Shown in pieces: positions 4,943-46,279 of a stretch of DNA of 64,000 nt. The stretch is from a virus (Duplodnaviria; Caudoviricetes), in the IMG/VR virus record IMGVR_UViG_3300021431_000075, positions 160,001 to 224,000 of that record. The stretch is one strand, 5' to 3'. Position 1 is the first letter of the stretch; the number at the start of each line of letters is the position of its first letter. The notes under the pieces are model-generated. The model saw only the letters and a list, made by a program, of their open reading frames with translations. It was not told the origin of the DNA and did not search any database. Position numbers and translations under genes: made by a program.

Positions 4943-7453
4943 ATGAAGAAACTAATAGACAAAGAAAAAGTCGTATCTGAAATAAAGAGAAGGATACGAA
5001 TACTTGAAGATACTATCAACAAACCGGATACTCTCCAGTTTCTCAAGTCTGCTTTGGGATATGAAGTTGAAAGATACAAATCCCTGATTTCGTATCTTGA
5101 TACGATGGAAACGACAGACGATCTTGAAAATATGATTCTTGAACTTCCGGAGTCGATTGCAAATCCGAAAAACCATCAAATTTATCAGTTGTCAATTTAT
5201 CATTATGACAGAAGCTGCTGTGTAGACTATGTCGGAGAACTGGAACATGACTCGCTGGTTTGCTTTGCGGAAAGTACATTTGCAAAAGCGGCAGACAAGA
5301 TGAAAAACTGGATAAAAGAAAACAAGATAGACAAGCATCTGCAGATTCCTGATGAATATGATGTCGTGAACACAACCGGTCAAGAACAAAATAATCTAAA
5401 TTTTGACGAGGTTGAAAAATTCATGATGAATACAAATGCTGAAAACCTTGAAGTCAAGAAAGGCAAATCGTACATTTGTATAGAAGACTGGAAGAAGCGC
5501 GGCACATCATTCACAAAAGGCAAGATATACGTTTGCCATAAAGACAGATGCATGTATGATGATTTCGGAGCAGAGAAAGCATCAGTCAGCAAGTTGTTCC
5601 GTCTTGCAACAAAAGAAGAGATAAAAAAGTCAAAAGCTTTCAGAAAAGGAGACTGGATTGTACTGCTTACAGAAGGCAATGACAACATCACTGTTCAAAT
5701 CATGGATGTTGAAGTGACATCGGACAAAGAAACCCGATACTGGATCTCCGACAACAAACTCAATATGAGATGGTTTGATGACAAATCAATCGCAAGACCA
5801 TGGAACATAAAATTTGATGCAAAAGACGGCGACATTCTCTGCACATATGAATGCGAAGAACCGAAAATCGTGTTCATTCTAAAGGGAAATCCGCATCCGT
5901 TGAGACCGTGCGTGTTAAGTTACTACTGCTACTACAACATCATGTATCCATATTTCGACCCAGGAATCGAAAAGGGTTGTCTTGCTCCCAATGATGAAGA
6001 TGTGAAACCTGCTACAAAAGAGCAGCGTGACACTCTCTTTGCAAAGATGAAAAATTCTGGTTATGAATGGGACGGTGATACAAAGAAGTTGATGGAAATT
6101 GAGCAGAAACCTGCTGATAAGGTTGAGCCAAAGTTTCATGAAGGAGACTGGGCTGTTTCTAATTTAGACGGAAATGCAAGACAAATTTCTGAAGTTCACT
6201 TTGACGAATATAATAGTTATTATGTTGTTGAAGGAAAATCTGTTAATTTAGAAGAATATGATAGACTACACCATCTTTGGACTATTGCTGATGCACAGGA
6301 CGGAGATGTGCTTAGTGATGGAACTACTATTTTTATATTCAAAAACTTACTATCAGACGGTTCAGTTATGTCATATTGTGACTATGATACAGATAGTAAT
6401 GAGAGCGATGCTTTCTGCCCATTATCGGTGAATTTGATATGTTCAAAAATTACTCCTGCGACCAAAGAACAGCATAATACTCTTGAAAAAGCAATGGTTG
6501 ATGCAGGATATACCTTTGACTTTGAAAAGAAAGAAATGAAGAAGATTGAACAGAAGCCTGCTGATAAACCTGAACATAAGTTTAAAGTTGGCAATTGGAT
6601 TACAAATGGCCATTGTACGTGTCAAATTACATTTATTGATAGTCGTTATTGGTATTCAAAACATTGTGTATTAGGTGATATTACATCTATTGATAAAACT
6701 TTCCATCTTTGGTCAATAAATGATGCACAGGACGGTGATGTACTTGCAACAGAACCGATTGATAGTTATAAATCTCCGTTTGTCGCCATTTATAAAAATC
6801 ATGGTCTTGATTTCTTTAATTCATATTGCTTTATTTGTTTTGATGGCAAATTTTATGAAGCAGGGACAGGACATTCAATAGAAAATATTCATCCTGCTAC
6901 AAAAGAGCAGCGTGACACTCTCTTTGCAAAGATGAAAGAAGCAAGTTATGAATGGGACGGTGATACAAAGGAGTTGATGGAGATTGAGCAGAAACAAGCA
7001 ATAGATTATCCAGATAGTCTTCCAAAAGACAACTGTGAACTTGTTCATGAATTCATTGAGAATTTTGGTAGAATGCCGGAAGATGAAGATGAACTAAACG
7101 TTCTTGTGGAATATGTCTTAAAGAGGCAGAAACCTGCTGAATGGAGTGAAGATGATGAAAGAATATGTCAATGCATTATCAAAGAACAAGAAGAAGCTCT
7201 TGTTGAAGTAAGAAATGACAAATATGGTCATTCAGAAATCATTTCAGATCTAAAGGAAATGTATCGTGAAAGAATCGATTGGCTCAAAAATCGCAAAAAC
7301 AGAACACTTCCGCAGCAAAAACAAGAATGGAGTGAAGACGACGAACAGAAATTTAGAGATGTAATCAGACTCATTGAACAAGGGGCGACTGTTCAATCAA
7401 TAAGAAACCATTATATAAATTGGTTCAAATCTCTCAGACAAAGGATAGGATAG
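4943..7453 (+). CDS. Large modular phage protein with three PATKEQ modules and WSE(D/E)DE repeats
   Basis: Long ORF; the likely start is MKKLIDKEK at 4943 rather than 4796. Confidence 0.85.
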   Translation: MKKLIDKEKVVSEIKRRIRILEDTINKPDTLQFLKSALGYEVERYKSLISYLDTMETTDDLENMILELPESIANPKNHQIYQLSIYHYDRSCCVDYVGELEHDSLVCFAESTFAKAADKMKNWIKENKIDKHLQIPDEYDVVNTTGQEQNNLNFDEVEKFMMNTNAENLEVKKGKSYICIEDWKKRGTSFTKGKIYVCHKDRCMYDDFGAEKASVSKLFRLATKEEIKKSKAFRKGDWIVLLTEGNDNITVQIMDVEVTSDKETRYWISDNKLNMRWFDDKSIARPWNIKFDAKDGDILCTYECEEPKIVFILKGNPHPLRPCVLSYYCYYNIMYPYFDPGIEKGCLAPNDEDVKPATKEQRDTLFAKMKNSGYEWDGDTKKLMEIEQKPADKVEPKFHEGDWAVSNLDGNARQISEVHFDEYNSYYVVEGKSVNLEEYDRLHHLWTIADAQDGDVLSDGTTIFIFKNLLSDGSVMSYCDYDTDSNESDAFCPLSVNLICSKITPATKEQHNTLEKAMVDAGYTFDFEKKEMKKIEQKPADKPEHKFKVGNWITNGHCTCQITFIDSRYWYSKHCVLGDITSIDKTFHLWSINDAQDGDVLATEPIDSYKSPFVAIYKNHGLDFFNSYCFICFDGKFYEAGTGHSIENIHPATKEQRDTLFAKMKEASYEWDGDTKELMEIEQKQAIDYPDSLPKDNCELVHEFIENFGRMPEDEDELNVLVEYVLKRQKPAEWSEDDERICQCIIKEQEEALVEVRNDKYGHSEIISDLKEMYRERIDWLKNRKNRTLPQQKQEWSEDDEQKFRDVIRLIEQGATVQSIRNHYINWFKSLRQRIG
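6008..6995 (+). repeat. ~100 bp near-identical direct repeat inside the gene (about 6008-6110 and 6893-6995)
   Basis: cctgctacaaaagagcagcgtgacactctctttgcaaagatgaaa...gttatgaatgggacggtgatacaaag occurs twice. Confidence 0.9.
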
Positions 7454-13060: not shown

Positions 13061-13134
13061 TGATCCAGAAGGGATTCGAACCCTTGACCCGCAGCTTAGA
13101 AGGCTGCTGCTCTATCCAGCTGAGCTACCGGACC
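13061..13134 (-). tRNA. tRNA-Arg(UCU)
   Basis: GGTCCGG acceptor, TAGCTCAGCTGGATAGAGC D-arm, anticodon loop CT-TCT-AA, GGTTCGAATCC T-arm; CCA not encoded. Confidence 0.95.
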
Positions 13135-37897: not shown

Positions 37898-37966
37898 AAA
37901 AAACCTGCGCGCTTCACAGCGCACAGGCACAAAAATAATCTAAATCTTAAATTACCATGAAAAACA
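37898..37966 (-). ncRNA. Candidate sRNA unit 1
   Basis: TTG-N20-TAACTTTG promoter (38002-37972); hairpin CCUGUGCGCU-GUGA-AGCGCGCAGG plus U6. Confidence 0.7.
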
Positions 37967-38022
37967 CTTTGCAAAGTTAATAACTTTATTTCATTCATGC
38001 AAGAAAAAATCAAAAAAATAAT

Positions 38023-38094
38023 AAAAAATCCGGCGCGCTGTCACAGCGAACCGGATTCAAAAAAAAACTTTTTAATATACTTGCAAAAATTCAT
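38023..38094 (-). ncRNA. Candidate sRNA unit 2
   Basis: TTG-N20-TATCTTTG (38130-38100); AUCCGGUUCGCU-GUGAC-AGCGCGCCGGAU plus U-tract. Confidence 0.7.
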
Positions 38095-38164
38095 CGCTGC
38101 AAAGATAGTGATTATTTTTGAACCAGACAACATAAAAACAAGTCTTTTAACTTTAATTAACGCC

Positions 38165-38250
38165 AAAAAAATCTGGCTCGCTATCACAGCGAACCAGAAA
38201 CAAAAGTACTTTTTAAATTCAAATCAACATTATTAATTAAATAATCAAAA
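38165..38250 (-). ncRNA. Candidate sRNA unit 3
   Basis: TTG-N20-TATATTTG (38286-38256); UCUGGUUCGCU-GUGAU-AGCGAGCCAGA plus U-tract. Confidence 0.7.
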
Positions 38251-38310
38251 CTTTGCAAATATAGCGATTTTGATTTTTCTGTGCAAGAAAATAATACATT
38301 TTTATGAATT

Positions 38311-38389
38311 AAAAAAACCGGCGCGCTGTCACAGCGAACCGGCTAAAAACATAAAACCTAAGAGTAATGATAGTATGTTTGCCTTTCAA
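38311..38389 (-). ncRNA. Candidate sRNA unit 4
   Basis: TTG-N20-TATATTTG (38425-38395); CCGGUUCGCU-GUGAC-AGCGCGCCGG plus U7. Confidence 0.7.
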
Positions 38390-38444
38390 CTCTGCAAATA
38401 TATAGACTTTTTTCGAAACTGACAAGAAAAAACAAAAAAATTTC

Positions 38445-38510
38445 AAAAAAAAAAAATGTCCGCGCGCTGTCACAGCGAACGGACACAACCAAATATGTAT
38501 TGTAATCGTT
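38445..38510 (-). ncRNA. Candidate sRNA unit 5
   Basis: UGUCCGUUCGCU-GUGAC-AGCGCGCGGACA plus long U-tract; no sigma-A box, TTAAATA upstream. Confidence 0.6.
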
Positions 38511-38614
38511 CACATATTTAATAGAAATATCCATCAAAAATATGCAAATAATTTTAAACTATTGTAGTAAAAATCAGTAACATTAATGGTTAAAACTTTT
38601 TAAACATAAATGTT

Positions 38615-39205
38615 ATGGATTACTACATAAAGTTATCAGACTATGCGAAGCGTTTCGGAGTGACATACCGGACTGCATGGAACCGCTACAAGCGCGGACA
38701 GTTTCCAGATGCTATAATAGACGAGACGAATCACATTTGCATACCAATCAAGCATTTTGTAAGCGATGAAAACATCTCTGTTGCAGTGTATGCACGCGTA
38801 TCTTCGTCAGAGAATAAGAGTAATCTTGACAGCCAAGCAGAACGTCTTGTGAACTATTGCATGGCTCGCGGCTACAAGGTTTCAAAGGTCGTAAAGGAAG
38901 TCGGTTCGGGGTTGAACGACGAGCGACCGAAGCTTGACAGTTTATTGAAGGACAGAAGCATAAAAATCATAGTCGTTGAACACAAGGACCGCTTCTCAAG
39001 ATTCGGTCTCAATTACATACAGACTCTGTTGAGCATGGATGACAGGAAGATAGAGATAGTTAACGAGTCTGGCGATGACAAGGAAGACTTGATGCAGGAC
39101 TTTGTCTCTATAGTGACTTCATTTTGTGCAAGGCTCTATGGGTTGCGTAGGAATAGAAGAAGGACAGAGAAGTTGATTCAGGAACTTCAGAATGAAGATA
39201 AATAA
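38615..39205 (+). CDS. tnpA: IS607 TnpA serine transposase
   Basis: MerR-like HTH, VYARVSS, EVGSGLN, VEHKDRFSRFG, SFCARLYG. Confidence 0.95.
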   Translation: MDYYIKLSDYAKRFGVTYRTAWNRYKRGQFPDAIIDETNHICIPIKHFVSDENISVAVYARVSSSENKSNLDSQAERLVNYCMARGYKVSKVVKEVGSGLNDERPKLDSLLKDRSIKIIVVEHKDRFSRFGLNYIQTLLSMDDRKIEIVNESGDDKEDLMQDFVSIVTSFCARLYGLRRNRRRTEKLIQELQNEDK

Positions 39206-39279
39206 TAATAGAATAATATAGAAATCTTTATCGAAGATAAATAATATAGAACAATATAGAAATCTTCATATAAAATATA

Positions 39280-40977
39280 GTGTCTGAACATAAGCATCAT
39301 AGAAGAAAAGTAGAAAAGAAGTCACAAAGAAAGATTTCTTCAAGTTCTTCTGTCTCTAATTCAAAGAATAAGAAGAAAAGACAGCCAAAGAAGCAGACTT
39401 TTGATGCTATGGGAATAATGCTTCGGATTTATCCGAACAGCAAGACACAGGAAGACTATATACTTCGTTCTTGTGGATGCGCTCGTCTTGTCTACAACAA
39501 GATAGTTGCGGACTATGAGTTGAAGAAAGAGCAAAGCTTAAGAGAATGGAAGAACAGTGAAACAGAGCATAAGTATCCGAAATACGGTTCGAAAGAAGGA
39601 AATGCTGTTTTGAACATGCTTAAAACCAATGAAGATTACTCGTTTCTTAAGGATGTCCATTCGAAGATGCTTCAGCAGGCAGTCTTGAATTTCTCGACCG
39701 CATTGTCAAACCATATAAGGTTCCCAGAGGATTTTGACGAGCCTGTGTTCAAGAAGAAAAGTAGACACAATGATTCGTTCCGCATTCCTATAGATGCGAT
39801 TCCCGGAAGCAATGGCAAGAAAGGAATACAATGTGTATATGGAAACAGAATATCGATTTGCTCTGAACTGACGGACGTTCTGTTTAAGTGCTCAAGACGT
39901 GACGAGAAGTATCTGAACAAGAACCAGAAGAAGATACGAAGCATAACAGTTTCTGTTGCTCCGGACGGGAAGATGTATGCTTCTGTTCTTATCGTTCCGC
40001 GCAATATAGACGTTGAAGATTGCGATATGATATGCGGTCTTGACTTGGGGCTTAAGGAGCATACGATTGAGCATCATCAGAAGATGTTCATTGATGATGA
40101 CGGCTTTGTTTCTCTTGCAGATAGTAATGTTGAGTATGTTCATATGCCGAACTTGAACAACTACAAGGATGAGAACGAAAAAGAACGAATGTTCAACAAG
40201 AACGGCGTTACAAGGCTTGAGCACTACAATAAGAAGTATATACACTGGCAGAAAGTTCTTTCAAGGACAGAGTATAATGCAAATACAAGAACTACATCAA
40301 GAAATAAAGACAACGATAAGAAACGAAACTATGACAGGGATAGTTTTCTAAACAAGAGAAGACTGAAGAATCTTGCACAATACAAGTTGAAGAGGGCAAC
40401 AACCAAGCCGTTCGGCAAGAAGCGCAAGAAGAATACATCCAAGCAAAATACAAATGTTGTATCTGAATGCAACAGACCCGTATGGCAGTACTCATCAAAC
40501 CGCCACGAGCGAATAAGGAAGCGCGCGGCGAAGTGGTCTGCGAAGATAGCGAACAAGAGAAGCGACTACAACCATAAGATTACGACAAGGCTTGTCAGAG
40601 AGAACAAGATGATAGTAACTGAGAACTTGAACGTGAGCGGTATGGTAAAGAACGGGAATCTGTCTAAAGCAATAATGAATGCTGGATGGAGCCAGTTCAC
40701 TCAGTTCTTGTCATACAAGGCTGAACGGTACGGAAGAATATACTACAAGATTGGAACATTCGCTGCATCTTCAAAGACCTGTCCGGTATGCGGGCACAAG
40801 TACAAGGAACTTACGCTTGCAGAGCGTGTGTGGACTTGCAAGAACTGCGGTGCTGTCATAAACAGGGATGAGGGTGCAAGTGACAACATAGTTTCGTTCG
40901 GAATAGAAGGATACAACGAGAAGCATCGAGCAGAACTTGACGAGCTTCGAATGAAAGACAGAGAACCAGAACTCTAA
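39280..40977 (+). CDS. tnpB: IS607 TnpB, enlarged (565 aa)
   Basis: RIYPN..CGCARLVYN HTH, GLDLGLK, TENLNV, SSKTCPVC..CKNC, NRDEGASDNI. Confidence 0.9.
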   Translation: MSEHKHHRRKVEKKSQRKISSSSSVSNSKNKKKRQPKKQTFDAMGIMLRIYPNSKTQEDYILRSCGCARLVYNKIVADYELKKEQSLREWKNSETEHKYPKYGSKEGNAVLNMLKTNEDYSFLKDVHSKMLQQAVLNFSTALSNHIRFPEDFDEPVFKKKSRHNDSFRIPIDAIPGSNGKKGIQCVYGNRISICSELTDVLFKCSRRDEKYLNKNQKKIRSITVSVAPDGKMYASVLIVPRNIDVEDCDMICGLDLGLKEHTIEHHQKMFIDDDGFVSLADSNVEYVHMPNLNNYKDENEKERMFNKNGVTRLEHYNKKYIHWQKVLSRTEYNANTRTTSRNKDNDKKRNYDRDSFLNKRRLKNLAQYKLKRATTKPFGKKRKKNTSKQNTNVVSECNRPVWQYSSNRHERIRKRAAKWSAKIANKRSDYNHKITTRLVRENKMIVTENLNVSGMVKNGNLSKAIMNAGWSQFTQFLSYKAERYGRIYYKIGTFAASSKTCPVCGHKYKELTLAERVWTCKNCGAVINRDEGASDNIVSFGIEGYNEKHRAELDELRMKDREPEL

Positions 40978-41130
40978 AAACTGGCTGCCCTTGAGTTCAG
41001 GGAGACGGGACGTGGAGATGACCTATAGGAAAACGCATTCTTTGAATGGACATGTGAGTACCAAGTCACCGATGAATCGTCAAAAGAAAGTAAACATACG
41101 GGATTCTATGAATTTCTATGTTCTACAGAA
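40978..41130 (+). ncRNA. Putative TnpB omegaRNA / right end
   Basis: ccctTGAGTTCAggg hairpin, cgtggag and gatgaatcgtcaa motifs directly after tnpB. Confidence 0.55.
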
Positions 41131-41165
41131 CTATAGAACACAAAAATTGAAAATTCCCAAATCAA

Positions 41166-41466
41166 TCAATCAGTAATCTCAAGATATCTTCTCACATCAT
41201 CCTTCTTGTAATGGCTCATGATGTAGCCATCTATCTTGTCATACAACTCTGAATAAAGAGCCGAGAACTTATTGCCATTCTTGATTACAGATGACCATGC
41301 TGGCAGAGAAGCACAGCACCGCCAAGATAAGGACTTTGATAAAATGAGGATTATCGGAGCAAAGCCCACTCGAAGCGGTGCTGAACAGTGGGAAACTGAG
41401 CGAATACATACCTACATGAAGAATCATAGAGGTAAACCCACACATTATTGTGCTGGAACACAATAA
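41166..41466. pseudogene. Two fused gene fragments on opposite strands
   Basis: Minus-strand C-terminal fragment (..SELYDKIDGYIM..LEITD*) abuts a plus-strand ITDD..REAQHRQ..WETERI fragment. Confidence 0.45.
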
Positions 41467-41554: not shown

Positions 41555-42646
41555 CTATTCAGACTCTCTCATCAAGTCGTGCAACCCGGGGATTTCATCG
41601 ACAACAAGCTTGTCAAGAAGCTCCATCTCGCATCCGGACTGCATAATATGCTTGTCATAAGCATCGATTTCTTCATGCTTCATCAGACGTGTCAGATACT
41701 TGTGGAACGGAAGCGGCATACCTTTGTATATACCTTCACGGTCGATGCTCTTATGATAGAACTCTCCCAACTTGTGCTTGGAATTGTCAGAAAACCTGAC
41801 AGCGCTGAACTCATATCCCTGCAGTACGAACCACTCTACCTTAAGATCAAGCGCCGTCTCGAACATTCCGTCATTGCAGATATCAAGAATCTTTCCATAC
41901 AAAGAGTCATCACCATCAAAGTAATACACAATCTCATCCGAGTTGAATGCCGCCATCTTCAAATCATTCGGACAACAAAGCATATGATCGATATACTCAG
42001 CAAGCGACTTCATCAGGTTCTTCTCTACAGATATGGTCCTTGCTGGATTCAGCTTACCGAAGATGACCTGACGGCTGTACTTCGACTCTGAAATGTAATC
42101 GAGCATGAAGCCGGAACAGAACTGTGCCAAAAAATCCCGGTATGTTTTCTGCTTGATAACCCCACACTTGCACAAAGTCTGGAAGTTCGCGTTCCTCATG
42201 TCAATGGAAATGAAACGCTTTCCGACATTCTGCATATTATAGATTCCCTTGCTTCCACAAACAGGCTTCACGACATAGTTTGTCTGGAACGGCAACACCT
42301 TCAAATTGTTAAACTCCTTGTACGCATCGGACTGCTCTACTGAGCGAATAACGCTATCCCGCGTCTCATAGTACTCCTGAAGAAACTTGGAAGCCTTCTC
42401 CGCAAAGTCTTGACCTTCATAGAGCCTGTTGATGTTGCACACGAGATTGCACCATTTCGTCTGTGCTCCGTACGTGTCTTCATACAACGACAAAGAATGG
42501 CGAAAATTCGCCTCGTCGCATCCGTCAATCGGAATCTTGTAGTCGCTTGCGAACCTTGCCGCAAGATTGAAATCATAAAACATATACCAGTTGTCGGAAT
42601 AGTTACTCACCTTGGTGATATCTATCAAATCACTATTTTTGCTCAT
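41555..42646 (-). CDS. Uncharacterised protein with DNA-polymerase-palm-like motifs
   Basis: FISIDMRNANF, SKYSRQVIFG, FNSDEIV, YKG in polymerase order. Confidence 0.5.
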   Translation of the reverse strand: MSKNSDLIDITKVSNYSDNWYMFYDFNLAARFASDYKIPIDGCDEANFRHSLSLYEDTYGAQTKWCNLVCNINRLYEGQDFAEKASKFLQEYYETRDSVIRSVEQSDAYKEFNNLKVLPFQTNYVVKPVCGSKGIYNMQNVGKRFISIDMRNANFQTLCKCGVIKQKTYRDFLAQFCSGFMLDYISESKYSRQVIFGKLNPARTISVEKNLMKSLAEYIDHMLCCPNDLKMAAFNSDEIVYYFDGDDSLYGKILDICNDGMFETALDLKVEWFVLQGYEFSAVRFSDNSKHKLGEFYHKSIDREGIYKGMPLPFHKYLTRLMKHEEIDAYDKHIMQSGCEMELLDKLVVDEIPGLHDLMRESE

Positions 42647-44069: not shown

Positions 44070-44207
44070 CTAATAGAACTGCGCGACGTATTTCTTGTAA
44101 TCATCGTCTATAATCATTCTCACATATCCTTCATCCGCATTCAACATTTCCGCAATCTCTTGGACAGAGGTTCCGCAACGCCATAGCATTAAAATCTGAT
44201 CATCCAT
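44070..44207 (-). CDS. Small HTH-like protein (45 aa)
   Basis: GTSVQEIAEMLNADEGYVRMII. Confidence 0.55.
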   Translation of the reverse strand: MDDQILMLWRCGTSVQEIAEMLNADEGYVRMIIDDDYKKYVAQFY

Positions 44208-44279: not shown

Positions 44280-44353
44280 AAAAAAACTGCGGATGCTATC
44301 ACAGCACCCGCAGCCCAACATACTTTTAAAATTATAATGAAAAAATCAAATGT
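44280..44353 (-). ncRNA. Candidate sRNA unit 6
   Basis: TTG-N20-TATCTTTG (44389-44359); CUGCGGGUGCU-GUGAU-AGCAUCCGCAG plus U7. Confidence 0.7.
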
Positions 44354-44399
44354 TGCTGCAAAGATATGAACTTTTTTTCATCCGTGCAAGAATTTATAT

Positions 44400-44485
44400 A
44401 AAAAAAAAAAGCGATCGTTATCACAACGACCGCTCACGAAAATCAAATTGCATAATCACTTAATAAATGCTACAAAAGCTTTACT
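44400..44485 (-). ncRNA. Candidate sRNA unit 7
   Basis: TTG-N20-TATCTTTG (44521-44491); AGCGGUCGUU-GUGAU-AACGAUCGCU plus long U-tract. Confidence 0.7.
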
Positions 44486-44553
44486 CGCCGCAAAGATATG
44501 AACTTTTCACAAAATATGCAAGAGTTTGCTTCATTTTTTTCCAAACAATCAAC

Positions 44554-44618
44554 AAAAAAGCCGCTACTTATCACAAGCAACGACTCTCCCTTTTTTAACA
44601 ATTAACAAAATTATAACA
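44554..44618 (-). ncRNA. Candidate sRNA unit 8
   Basis: AGUCGUUGCUU-GUGAU-AAGUAGCGGCU plus U-tract; TATAAAT upstream (44630-44624). Confidence 0.6.
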
Positions 44619-44648
44619 CCACGATTTATAGCAAAAAAGTTTTCATCA

Positions 44649-45401
44649 TCACAATAAAGTGTTCAACCTGTTGCTCATAATGTCGAAGAACTTCTCATCC
44701 AGTTCTATACCGATGAACTTCATTCCACAGTTAAGAGCAGCAACTCCAGTACTTCCGCTACCGGCAGTGAAGTCAAGAACGGTCCCTCCGACCGGACAAT
44801 AAGACTTACACAGGAACTCCATCAGCTCTATCGGCTTCTGTGTAGGATGCAGCTGGTCCTGTCTTCTCCACTTCTGAGGAAAGTCAAGCACGCTGTCAGG
44901 ATGCCTCGTCCCCTTGTTGTCAGTCTCAACACCTCGGATTCCGTAGTTCATATTGTTGGTCTTGTTCGGAGTGTACGCACGCTTGTAGGGTTCACCATCT
45001 CTCATCTGCGGACAATAATACGCCGCCGAGTTTCCGAACACAAGAATGTTCTCATGCTTCTTCATCGGCATGTACTTTGCCGTGAACGGGGAACCGCACT
45101 TGCTTTTCTTCCATATGAGCTCGTATCTGTACTTCTTCTCGTTGCTCAAAGCAAGTTTGTGCGTGAAAATGCCGCCGGAAAACAGGACTATGTTCCCGTT
45201 ATCGACAACAAGAGAGTCAAGACACTTCCACATGTCAGTGAAGTCTATGATGCTCTTGTCGAACTCCGAAGAAAAGATTCCATAAGGCGGATCGCATATG
45301 ACAGCATCGACCTTGACTCCCTGCTCGATAAGAATTTTCATCTCCTCGATACAGTCTCCGTTTATAATCGTATATCTCGGATCCTCTATCTTCTGTCTCA
45401 T
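44649..45401 (-). CDS. Site-specific DNA methyltransferase (N6A/N4C, beta class)
   Basis: GDC, ICDPPY, HENILVF, HPTQKP, VLDFTAGSGST, GIELD. Confidence 0.92.
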   Translation of the reverse strand: MRQKIEDPRYTIINGDCIEEMKILIEQGVKVDAVICDPPYGIFSSEFDKSIIDFTDMWKCLDSLVVDNGNIVLFSGGIFTHKLALSNEKKYRYELIWKKSKCGSPFTAKYMPMKKHENILVFGNSAAYYCPQMRDGEPYKRAYTPNKTNNMNYGIRGVETDNKGTRHPDSVLDFPQKWRRQDQLHPTQKPIELMEFLCKSYCPVGGTVLDFTAGSGSTGVAALNCGMKFIGIELDEKFFDIMSNRLNTLL

Positions 45402-46279
45402 TTGCATTTTCGATTTGTTTTTCCTTTTTTGTGCCACCGGTTCATCATCTTGCATTCCTTTGTTTCATCGCCGCTGTTTTTTTGATTCTCTTTCAAATCT
45501 TCCATATCGCTTGTCCATCTATTCTTGTCGATAGTGCTCGACAAGACACCAAGAACAAAAAGCCACATATTAATGAATTTTCTAAAACACATAATCGCGC
45601 TTATATCATTCCTGAACCACAACGGACTAATGAAAGCCTGCCCACTATAAAAGAAACCCAAATTCTGTTGCGTAATCGCGCTGACGAACACATACTGCGG
45701 ATACAAGCCGTCTGACGACTTGGTCTTATGCATGCCAAGCGACGAGCAACTCATCAGAACAACCGGACCCTTGATTATTGACAAACTCTCGACAATCAAT
45801 TCCGGACTCTTCGCAAGCATTCCTGCATACAGATACCAGTTGCGCACATCTTGAGGATTGTCTGTCACCCCCTTCTCAACCGCACGGCTATCCCATGTAT
45901 TGTTATACAAATTGCAAATCATCTCAAGTCGCGCAAAACACTTGGCTGTATATGACCGGATTCTTTCGCAGTGCAAAGCATACTCGGAAGTTCTGGTCAA
46001 CATATCGACAGAGCTATCATCCGGCGTCATGGTGTCAGAACCGAAACTCCCTTGAAATATGCTGCAAGTGCAAAACTTAACACTGAACTCAGCCAAAATT
46101 GTCGATTCCACGCATTCATAGTCCTCAGGCTTCGCACGCTTCAGTTCAGCAGAGGTATCGACATCAACCATGAATATGCCTGTAGAACCGCAGTTCCGGA
46201 AAACGAACCTGTGCTTCGACATCATGGACAAAAAGTACTCACACTGTCCTGTATTCTTAACCGATATTGCGACTCTCAT
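45398..46279 (-). CDS. Hypothetical protein
   Basis: 293 aa, ATGA-coupled to the MTase. Confidence 0.65.
   Translation of the reverse strand: MRVAISVKNTGQCEYFLSMMSKHRFVFRNCGSTGIFMVDVDTSAELKRAKPEDYECVESTILAEFSVKFCTCSIFQGSFGSDTMTPDDSSVDMLTRTSEYALHCERIRSYTAKCFARLEMICNLYNNTWDSRAVEKGVTDNPQDVRNWYLYAGMLAKSPELIVESLSIIKGPVVLMSCSSLGMHKTKSSDGLYPQYVFVSAITQQNLGFFYSGQAFISPLWFRNDISAIMCFRKFINMWLFVLGVLSSTIDKNRWTSDMEDLKENQKNSGDETKECKMMNRWHKKGKTNRKCK

Follow-up and report, generated by a model that had tools for sequence, protein, structure and literature searches.

The stretch analysed here (the window) comprises 64,000 nucleotides, bases 160001-224000 of the viral record IMGVR_UViG_3300021431_000075, and carries on its minus strand two tandem arrays of short promoter-hairpin units, which a preliminary description had singled out for a conserved hairpin loop. 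The record is 673,114 bp long with direct terminal repeats, and long open reading frames (ORFs) cover 85% under the standard code 11. Its source is a gut or rumen megaphage, whose host we place at the family level, in the Bacteroidaceae. The promoter-like sites of the window are of the Bacteroidota type (-33 TTG, -7 TAnnTTTG), which means that the phage has at least part of its transcription done by a Bacteroidota host's RNA polymerase.

Anatomy of the two arrays

Array 1 (37898-38497) consists of four complete units and one lone hairpin, the latter being unit 1 of units 1-5, and array 2 (44280-44640) holds units 6-8. The eight copies and the common architecture 6 kb apart that the preliminary description had reported are thus borne out; its quoted strings, its stems and the U-GUGAU-A apex all lie where it had placed them, yet the units are read on the minus strand (on the plus strand the strings stand at 44324, 44457 and 44593, and the promoter text of units 6 and 7 at 44358 and 44490). 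Six units, by regular expression on the minus strand, have a TTG-N20-TAnnTTTG promoter. Transcript starts were inferred 5 nt past the -7 box, on the pattern of the host genes for the small RNA (sRNA) FopS, which is described below. The units and their parts are as follows.

44606-44634, minus: promoter-like site of unit 8, TTG-N18-TAATTTTG (regular expression), starting 15 nt past the stop codon of a methylase gene
44554-44601, minus: unit 8, ~48 nt if its promoter is real; hairpin 44585-44559 with apex GUGAU at 44574-44570, then a T-run; predicted free energy -12.7 kcal/mol
44491-44521, minus: unit 7 promoter; -33 TTG, 20-nt spacer, -7 TATCTTTG
44400-44486, minus: unit 7, predicted sRNA of ~87 nt; 50-nt A/U-rich body, hairpin 44435-44409, 11 T; -13.3 kcal/mol
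44424-44420, minus: unit 7 apex GUGAU, from folding
44359-44389, minus: unit 6 promoter; -33 TTG, 20-nt spacer, -7 TATCTTTG
44280-44354, minus: unit 6, predicted sRNA of ~75 nt; hairpin 44314-44286 with apex GUGAU at 44302-44298, 7 T; -20.9 kcal/mol
38447-38497, minus: unit 1 hairpin; apex GUGAC at 38473-38469, 12 T
38023-38425, minus: units 2-4; promoters 38425-38395, 38286-38256 and 38130-38100, apexes at 38332, 38187 and 38044
37898-38002, minus: unit 5; promoter 38002-37972, 70-nt sRNA 37967-37898, GUGA tetraloop 37917-37914

The units recur at a period of 125-145 bp. Their predicted RNAs are 48-87 nt long and end in a GC-rich intrinsic terminator, a single strong 3' hairpin followed by a U-tract (5-12 U), while the 5' bodies of the full units (40-50 nt) are A/U-rich and form weak A/U pairing only, with a mean probability of being unpaired of ~0.5. 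In array 2, three GC hairpins (RNAfold free energies of -12.7 to -20.9 kcal/mol), each followed by 5-11 T, present the apex U-GUGAU-A in all three cases (44302-44298, 44424-44420 and 44574-44570) on inner stems that are unrelated and fully paired (UGCU/AGCA, CGUU/AACG, GCUU/AAGU). The promoters of units 7 and 6 end 55 and 43 nt before their hairpins and have 17-18 nt around the -7 box in common. Units 2-4 share an inner hairpin, and their outer stems covary. A DNA methylase gene (44649-45455; Pfam N6_N4_Mtase) has its stop codon 60 nt before unit 8; the promoter of this unit has a spacer 2 nt short of that in the others, and it is uncertain whether this promoter is real.

The hairpin apex in the phage genome and its relatives

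We called terminator-like hairpins by folding the 42 nt before every T-run of the whole 673-kb genome, which gave 173 sites. A U/A-closed GUGA(Y) apex was found in the eight array units and in none of the remaining 165, which use many loops; an equal frequency on ordinary gene terminators, which the preliminary description had itself set against its proposal, was thus not observed. The two ordinary terminators that it had named as lacking the loop (12084 and 43971, here 12090 and 43980) indeed carry CGGT and GUUUU instead. At genome position 270619 a gene is followed by a GUGAU terminator with C/G closure, and a looser filter adds two terminators of the GNGA type, at 475861 (U/A-closed and weak, -7.7 kcal/mol) and 522803. 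A strict promoter (TTG-N17-23-TAnnTTTG) stands 42-57 nt upstream, with no intervening ORF, in 6 of the 8 array units as against 7 of the 165 other terminators. The motif is therefore specific to the arrays and tied to promoters rather than ORFs.

More distant relatives of the phage were located through a 363-aa neighbour protein. The metagenome contig L037 matches the window at 96-98% identity; in it the sRNA bodies differ at 1-2 positions and the 45-nt spacer before the -7 box of unit 4 at ~10. In L051 (83% protein identity) two units replace array 2 and seven replace array 1, and in L041 (68%) at least three such hairpins are present. The complete units of L051 and L041 always consist of TTG-N20-TAnnTTTG, a 35-65-nt body, a GC hairpin and a U-tract, and across L051, L041 and L037 the promoter, apex and U-tract are kept while stems and bodies change. 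No near relative was found in the GenBank phage collection, in IMG/VR with a 263-aa neighbour protein, or with the promoter text of units 6 and 7. The methylase gene proved promiscuous as a route to relatives, its matches (69-73% identity) lying in unrelated contexts. The 363-aa protein itself (41555-42646, minus), encoded between the arrays, has no Pfam match, and its homologs (33 clusters) are apparently confined to related large phage contigs.

Covariation was counted over these related sequences in an apex-anchored alignment of our own making. Among 20 distinct hairpins from the window and its relatives, the loops are GUGAU (7), GCGAC (4), GUGAC (3), GUGA (3), GCGAU (2) and GCGA (1), closed by U-A in every case. 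Stem position 2 is C-G in 13 and U-A in 7, swapped on both sides, position 5 is a pyrimidine-pyrimidine mismatch in 12 of the 20, and positions 6-11 are 95-100% paired with 4-5 pair types each. A separate count with 11-nt arms took in 19 distinct hairpins, with 17 different outer arms between them; here 98.2% of the outer stem is paired. When the 3' arms were permuted, pairing averaged 57% and reached at most 75%, and none of 2000 permutations attained the observed value. Selection on RNA structure, as the preliminary description had argued, is thus supported.

The claim of a conserved loop holds for the array 2 hairpins, but not as strict invariance, since the relatives carry GUGA, GUGAY, GCGA and GCGAY. 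Given the loop counts and the covarying stems, what is conserved can be written U-GYGA(Y)-A: an apex of the GNRA type in which a fifth base, a pyrimidine, is optional. The preliminary description had gone on to postulate a sequence-specific loop binder. Across the wider family any base may occupy loop position 2 (U or C here, G or A in other FopS copies), which argues for a GNRA-like fold over a base-by-base read-out; the strict G at loop position 3, never A, nevertheless exceeds the demands of stability alone. The apex is probably kept because the scaffold needs it, whether for folding or termination, for stability or for some partner.

An apex of this type could also be a switch: a phage protein might bind it, as the N protein of lambda or P22 acts on boxB, and turn the tandem promoters to read-through. 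We consider such regulated terminators very unlikely. The promoter rows do precede small helix-turn-helix-like genes (44070-44207, with a weak sigma-70 region 4 match), and boxB is alike in its short GC stem, its U-A closure and its GNRA-like pentaloop, a U-A-closed pentaloop on a GCGCU/AGCGC stem being reminiscent of P22 boxB. However, the boxB hairpins of nut sites are not terminators, have a loop that ends in A, are accompanied by boxA and the N protein and occur once per early operon, traits not found here: the array hairpins are followed by 5-12 U, their fifth loop base is a pyrimidine or absent, and neither a boxA-like element or repeat nor an arginine-rich small protein was seen, an N-like protein not having been searched for systematically. 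Tracts of 6-12 U point to efficient termination. The downstream genes are served by promoters of their own past the last terminator, L051 lacks the small gene at the position after array 2, and the same loop stands on free-standing host sRNAs.

The ORF at 44070-44207 (minus, 46 aa), just past array 2, matched sigma-70 region 4 (E 0.006) and DUF6115 (E 4e-4), both below the cut-off; at its counterpart no gene was called in L051 or L041, and a 45-aa gene was called in the closest relative.

Other readings of the hairpins were tried and rejected. Small peptides ending at the UGA of the loop would require frames through the apex that run for 7-60 codons, most of them lacking a start codon. A replication origin with short transcripts as primers would not agree with the cumulative GC skew, which has its minimum at ~290-300 kb of the genome and not at 198-204 kb. 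Finally, a common host terminator or a REP-like (repetitive extragenic palindromic) element does not agree with the 15-nt inner hairpin occurring just 1-2 times per metagenome-assembled genome (MAG).

Kinship with the host sRNAs FopS and GibS

FopS is a family of paralogous Bacteroidaceae sRNAs of ~70 nt, which are transcribed from sigma-ABfr promoters, consist of a single-stranded 5' seed and a Rho-independent terminator, and repress the start region of susC mRNA, SusC being an outer-membrane transporter; one copy in a Caudovirales phage has already been mentioned (Ruettiger et al. 2025, PMC11697453). The RNA recognition motif (RRM) protein RbpB binds and cross-links to the 5' part of FopS, not to its terminator loop (PMC11697453). 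In GibS of Bacteroides thetaiotaomicron (RF04182), the extended seed comprises the first 30-50 nt and pairs with translation start regions (Ryan et al. 2020, PMC7366714).

Unit 5 matches the Rfam FopS model (RF04319) with 37.8 bits over model positions 1-71 (E 8e-4 locally and 1.3e-4 genome-wide), under the gathering threshold of 56 bits. Its first 15 nt are identical to the FopS consensus seed at 15 of 15 positions, with hairpin and loop in register, and the seed is also present in its ortholog in L051, a diverged phage. The spacing between -7 box and seed in the units equals that of the host FopS genes. The 5' part of unit 6 is diverged but FopS-like, and its full-length match to RF04319 is weak (24.3 bits, E 0.16); a partial 5' seed is found in unit 6 and in the last unit of array 2 of L051. 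These FopS searches reported matches up to E 10 for array 1 and up to E 5 for array 2, and none of the other units was among them; their resemblance is limited to that of generic terminators. At gathering thresholds, the sole Rfam match in the window was a tRNA (13061-13134, minus, 67 bits).

For the complement of the unit 5 seed we searched 301 genomes from the family to which a Prevotella MAG with the same hairpin core belongs. It occurs in 289 of them, at ~2-10 copies each as compared with ~0.2 for a reversed control. These matches are not targets, but homologous genes on the opposite strand, complete with -7 box, the same 5' sequence and a terminator, and Rfam names them FopS (RF04319) with 74-84 bits (70-84 bits for the host copies overall). 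Of 61 sampled genomes of the host family, 59 contain FopS, in up to 13 copies. The FopS consensus loop is GuGaa. Among 38 distinct host copies, the seed of the unit 5 type always goes with a C-G-closed GUGA, GUGAU or GAGAU loop, and a second host type has RGCG loops that are constant over covarying stems. Likewise, the first (internal) hairpin of the GibS consensus in Rfam presents U-GUGAU-A, and 13 of its letters are identical to the apex of unit 8 with its flanking pairs. The Bacteroides-type copies of FopS and GibS thus share the GNGA(Y) loop, and a conserved loop on a free stem is a property of the whole sRNA family, so the loop can no longer be taken for an invention of the phage.

In the host loci inspected (L060-L093), a CATAG-type seed goes with RGCG loops and a CATGG-type seed with GNGA(U) loops. 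In both types the 40-nt body and the loop are near-invariant and the terminator stem varies with compensating changes; copies are often clustered, 260-2000 bp apart.

The FopS seed is also present in at least 115 IMG/VR contigs. The 80 viral loci that we fetched yielded 25 distinct units with terminators, whose loops are mostly GGGA, GAGA or GUGA with or without U, and no second terminator with a GNRA apex was found within 800 nt at any of the 80. Among the loci examined, tandem arrays with replaced bodies are found only in the lineage of this megaphage (the window, L037, L041 and L051), and no description of such arrays was found in the literature searched. In this lineage 8-9 units stand in two rows; FopS itself, and one phage copy of it, were already in print.

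When compared with FopS, the units are alike in having a sigma-ABfr-type promoter, a length of ~70 nt, a 5' seed followed by one terminator, multiple and sometimes adjacent copies and, in those copies with a seed of the unit 5 type, a GNGA(Y) loop. They differ in that all remain under the Rfam cut-off (37.8 bits at best), in that FopS keeps its body and varies its stem whereas most units have unrelated bodies, and in their U-A rather than C-G closing pair, their often mismatched stem position 5 and their dense packing in the phage. GibS shares the unit 5 seed and the unit 8 apex; unlike the units, it is 145 nt long and single-copy, with two internal hairpins and a second seed, and matches to its model reach only 22-23 bits against a cut-off of 115. 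The single viral FopS copies share the FopS seed and, mostly, GNGA(Y) loops, but not the tandem second unit.

These likenesses lead us to favour, with moderate confidence, the view that both arrays are rows of separately transcribed sRNA genes of the FopS/GibS type, carried and multiplied by a Bacteroidaceae megaphage. Upon infection, host RNA polymerase would make the short RNAs, and their 5' bodies would act as extended seeds that pair with the translation start regions of host, and perhaps phage, mRNAs, repressing them much as FopS represses SusC mRNA, probably with the host's RbpB. Tandem duplication followed by replacement of the 5' body would generate a changeable set of seeds on one scaffold; units 6 and 7 still have promoter text in common.

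The preliminary description had proposed that the variable parts mirror start regions. This stands for unit 5, with its FopS/GibS seed (PMC7366714, PMC11697453). It stands more loosely for unit 6: here the seed could base-pair with a start codon that precedes a run of A, a plausible match to a start region. The proposal does not hold for the other units, which have no target above chance in the phage or in the sampled host genomes; a CAT triplet is expected about half the time in a 45-nt A/T-rich stretch, and mirroring is therefore not demonstrable for them.

We also entertain, tentatively and as a rather unlikely extension, that the megaphage reuses the FopS scaffold as a chassis, keeping promoter, terminator and apex and swapping the 40-50-nt seed, so that the arrays encode fast-evolving antisense RNAs. 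If so, they would silence chosen host start regions, for example those of SusC-type transporters that serve as receptors, or those of defence genes; the arrays would be a protein-free counterpart of a guide array, and the turnover of seeds between related phages would reflect an arms race.

The RNAs could instead act as decoys or sponges, many FopS scaffolds soaking up RbpB or a loop-binding factor and thereby releasing or blocking the host's sRNA network. The scaffold (apex, closing pair and the frequent pyrimidine mismatch at position 5) is conserved while the body is free to vary, many strong promoters stand in a row, RbpB is known to bind FopS (PMC11697453), and no phage-encoded RRM protein was found, all of which would suit a sponge. 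Yet RbpB cross-links to the 5' portion of FopS, which is conserved here only in unit 5, and no loop binder is known; we judge a sponge improbable.

Insertions, turnover and the case against an sRNA function

An insertion sequence (IS) separates the two arrays:

38498-41134, plus: IS607-like insertion; by Pfam, a serine-recombinase TnpA at 38615-39205 and a 565-aa TnpB at 39280-40977

A second copy of this element lies at genome position 117441-120054, and the element is absent from L037, L041 and L051. In L037, the sequence of 41132-41282 is joined directly to 38500. The apparent promoter and 5' stretch of unit 1 thus belong to the end of the inserted IS; before the insertion, the unit 1 hairpin lay just 3' of the small ORF 41166-41369, as its terminator. 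L037 in turn carries an IS200/IS605 element (L037:7828-9857; Y1 transposase and a 470-aa TnpB) inside array 1, which removed 124 bp comprising the terminator of unit 4 and the promoter of unit 5.

Two different TnpB-carrying IS elements have thus hit the same 600-bp array in two close relatives, and a copy of the L037 IS200/IS605 element, 92% identical, lies at genome position 132847-134894 of the window phage. The TnpA of the IS607-like element is 196 aa long, its 565-aa TnpB is unusually long, and its second copy is 88-90% identical. The TnpB-distal 152 nt (window 40983-41134) also occur by themselves at genome positions 585754-585907 and 643562-643717, 93% identical, perhaps as solo ends or as scaffolds of guide RNAs.

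With a TnpB gene between the arrays and a layout of variable part plus constant hairpin, the units invite comparison with guide RNAs for an RNA-guided protein, such as the neighbouring TnpB, or with a CRISPR-like array or an anti-CRISPR repeat mimic. We regard this as hardly tenable. The IS with its TnpB is a recent insertion, absent from relatives that all have arrays; TnpB therefore lies outside the system. A TnpB guide RNA comes from the 3' end of its own element and has the guide on its 3' side. The IS boundary here falls outside the units, save that it displaced the upstream context of unit 1. Nor did a constant repeat emerge: unlike CRISPR repeats, the hairpin stems vary (the 17 outer arms in 19 hairpins), and the units are each equipped with a promoter and a terminator. 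The term guides in a CRISPR-like sense, which the preliminary description had used, is not supported. No unit matched Rfam at gathering thresholds, and no protospacer-like match was found in the phage collection.

Several observations weigh against an sRNA function of the arrays as a whole. Units 2-4, 7 and 8 have no FopS seed and no detectable FopS similarity beyond the scaffold. A search for antisense targets in the phage (blastn-short) gave none above chance, its one strong match (31 nt at genome position 120020) being the second copy of the IS end. In 41 host-family genomes the seed pattern of unit 6 was no more frequent than its reversed control, and BLAST of both arrays against four MAGs returned mainly promoter boxes, the FopS seed and the hairpin core, so that neither the phage nor the sampled host genomes gave a target above chance. 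A body motif, UU(U)AA(A)G, is shared by 10 of 15 bodies; its enrichment fails multiple testing. Units 1 and 8 each come after a gene and could be ordinary terminators, unit 8 simply that of the methylase gene. The insertions in array 1 of two close relatives show that individual units are dispensable. Lastly, only the body of unit 5, with the same 5' end, is conserved between the window phage and L051, whose neighbouring proteins are 83% identical; this fits rapid turnover of seeds and equally well no constraint at all, and because it cuts both ways, our confidence in sRNA genes stays moderate.

Much of this would also be expected if the units were promoter-terminator cassettes with a functionless RNA product, whether leftovers of duplication or mobile regulatory modules that insulate genes or promote recombination, the apex being merely a good terminator. 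In line with such cassettes, the number of units varies between relatives (5 vs 7 and 3 vs 2), bodies other than that of unit 5 are not conserved, IS insertions and the 124-bp deletion are tolerated, units 1 and 8 serve as gene terminators, and in the 31-kb phage G001 the hairpin core and promoter are duplicated around a 3-kb gene block. However, a terminator needs no set loop, yet GYGA(Y) with U-A closure is found in all 20 hairpins, as against a variety of loops in the other 165 terminators of the genome; unit 5 holds an exact 15-nt host sRNA seed in two diverged phages; and there are no ORFs between the cassettes, the downstream genes each having their own promoter. We therefore rate functionless cassettes as unlikely, if less so than a sponge.

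The PeSL (promoter early stem-loop) cassettes of T4-type phages, intergenic modules of an early promoter and a stem-loop whose copy number varies between relatives, stand on either side of variable ORFs and are a presumed means of gene shuffling. The units resemble them as repeated promoter and stem-loop modules of variable copy number, and differ in having no ORFs in between, a specifically conserved loop, and one unit that is a recognisable host sRNA.

The regulation of gene expression by sRNAs is a young field in the Bacteroidota (GibS dates from 2020, FopS with RbpB from 2025), and on phages that exploit it, all that was in print is one sentence about a FopS copy. If expressed, the arrays would show plainly how a phage can copy a host sRNA family and diversify its members to gain control of host gene expression. 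They would further offer a natural mutagenesis series for the FopS scaffold (apex, U-A closing pair, position-5 mismatch), and their compact promoter-seed-terminator layout could be adapted to knock down genes in Bacteroides and Prevotella. Should expression or targets be lacking, nothing more than duplicated promoter-terminator cassettes would be left of the finding.

Outside this lineage, the 21-nt core of the array 1 hairpin recurs in phage G001, behind a weakly FopS-like 3' untranslated region (UTR; 20.5 and 11.8 bits), and 1-2 times in several Bacteroidales MAGs. In G001 (L006:3330-3470 and 6310-6450), a module of ~130 bp, composed of the 3' UTR, hairpin and promoter, is duplicated 3 kb apart and brackets a gene block. 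On the minus strand of a Prevotella sp. RUG116 contig (L026, ~1540-1800), two hairpins with the array 1 core lie ~250 nt apart, the first with a TACCTTTG box ~115 nt upstream and a weak U-tract, the second with its inner pair swapped (CGCA-GUGA-UGCG). A contig of a Clostridia-labelled MAG (L019, minus) has a terminator with the array 1 core, followed by 4-5 direct repeats of ~22-25 nt (GTATCGGGGACGTAAT-like).

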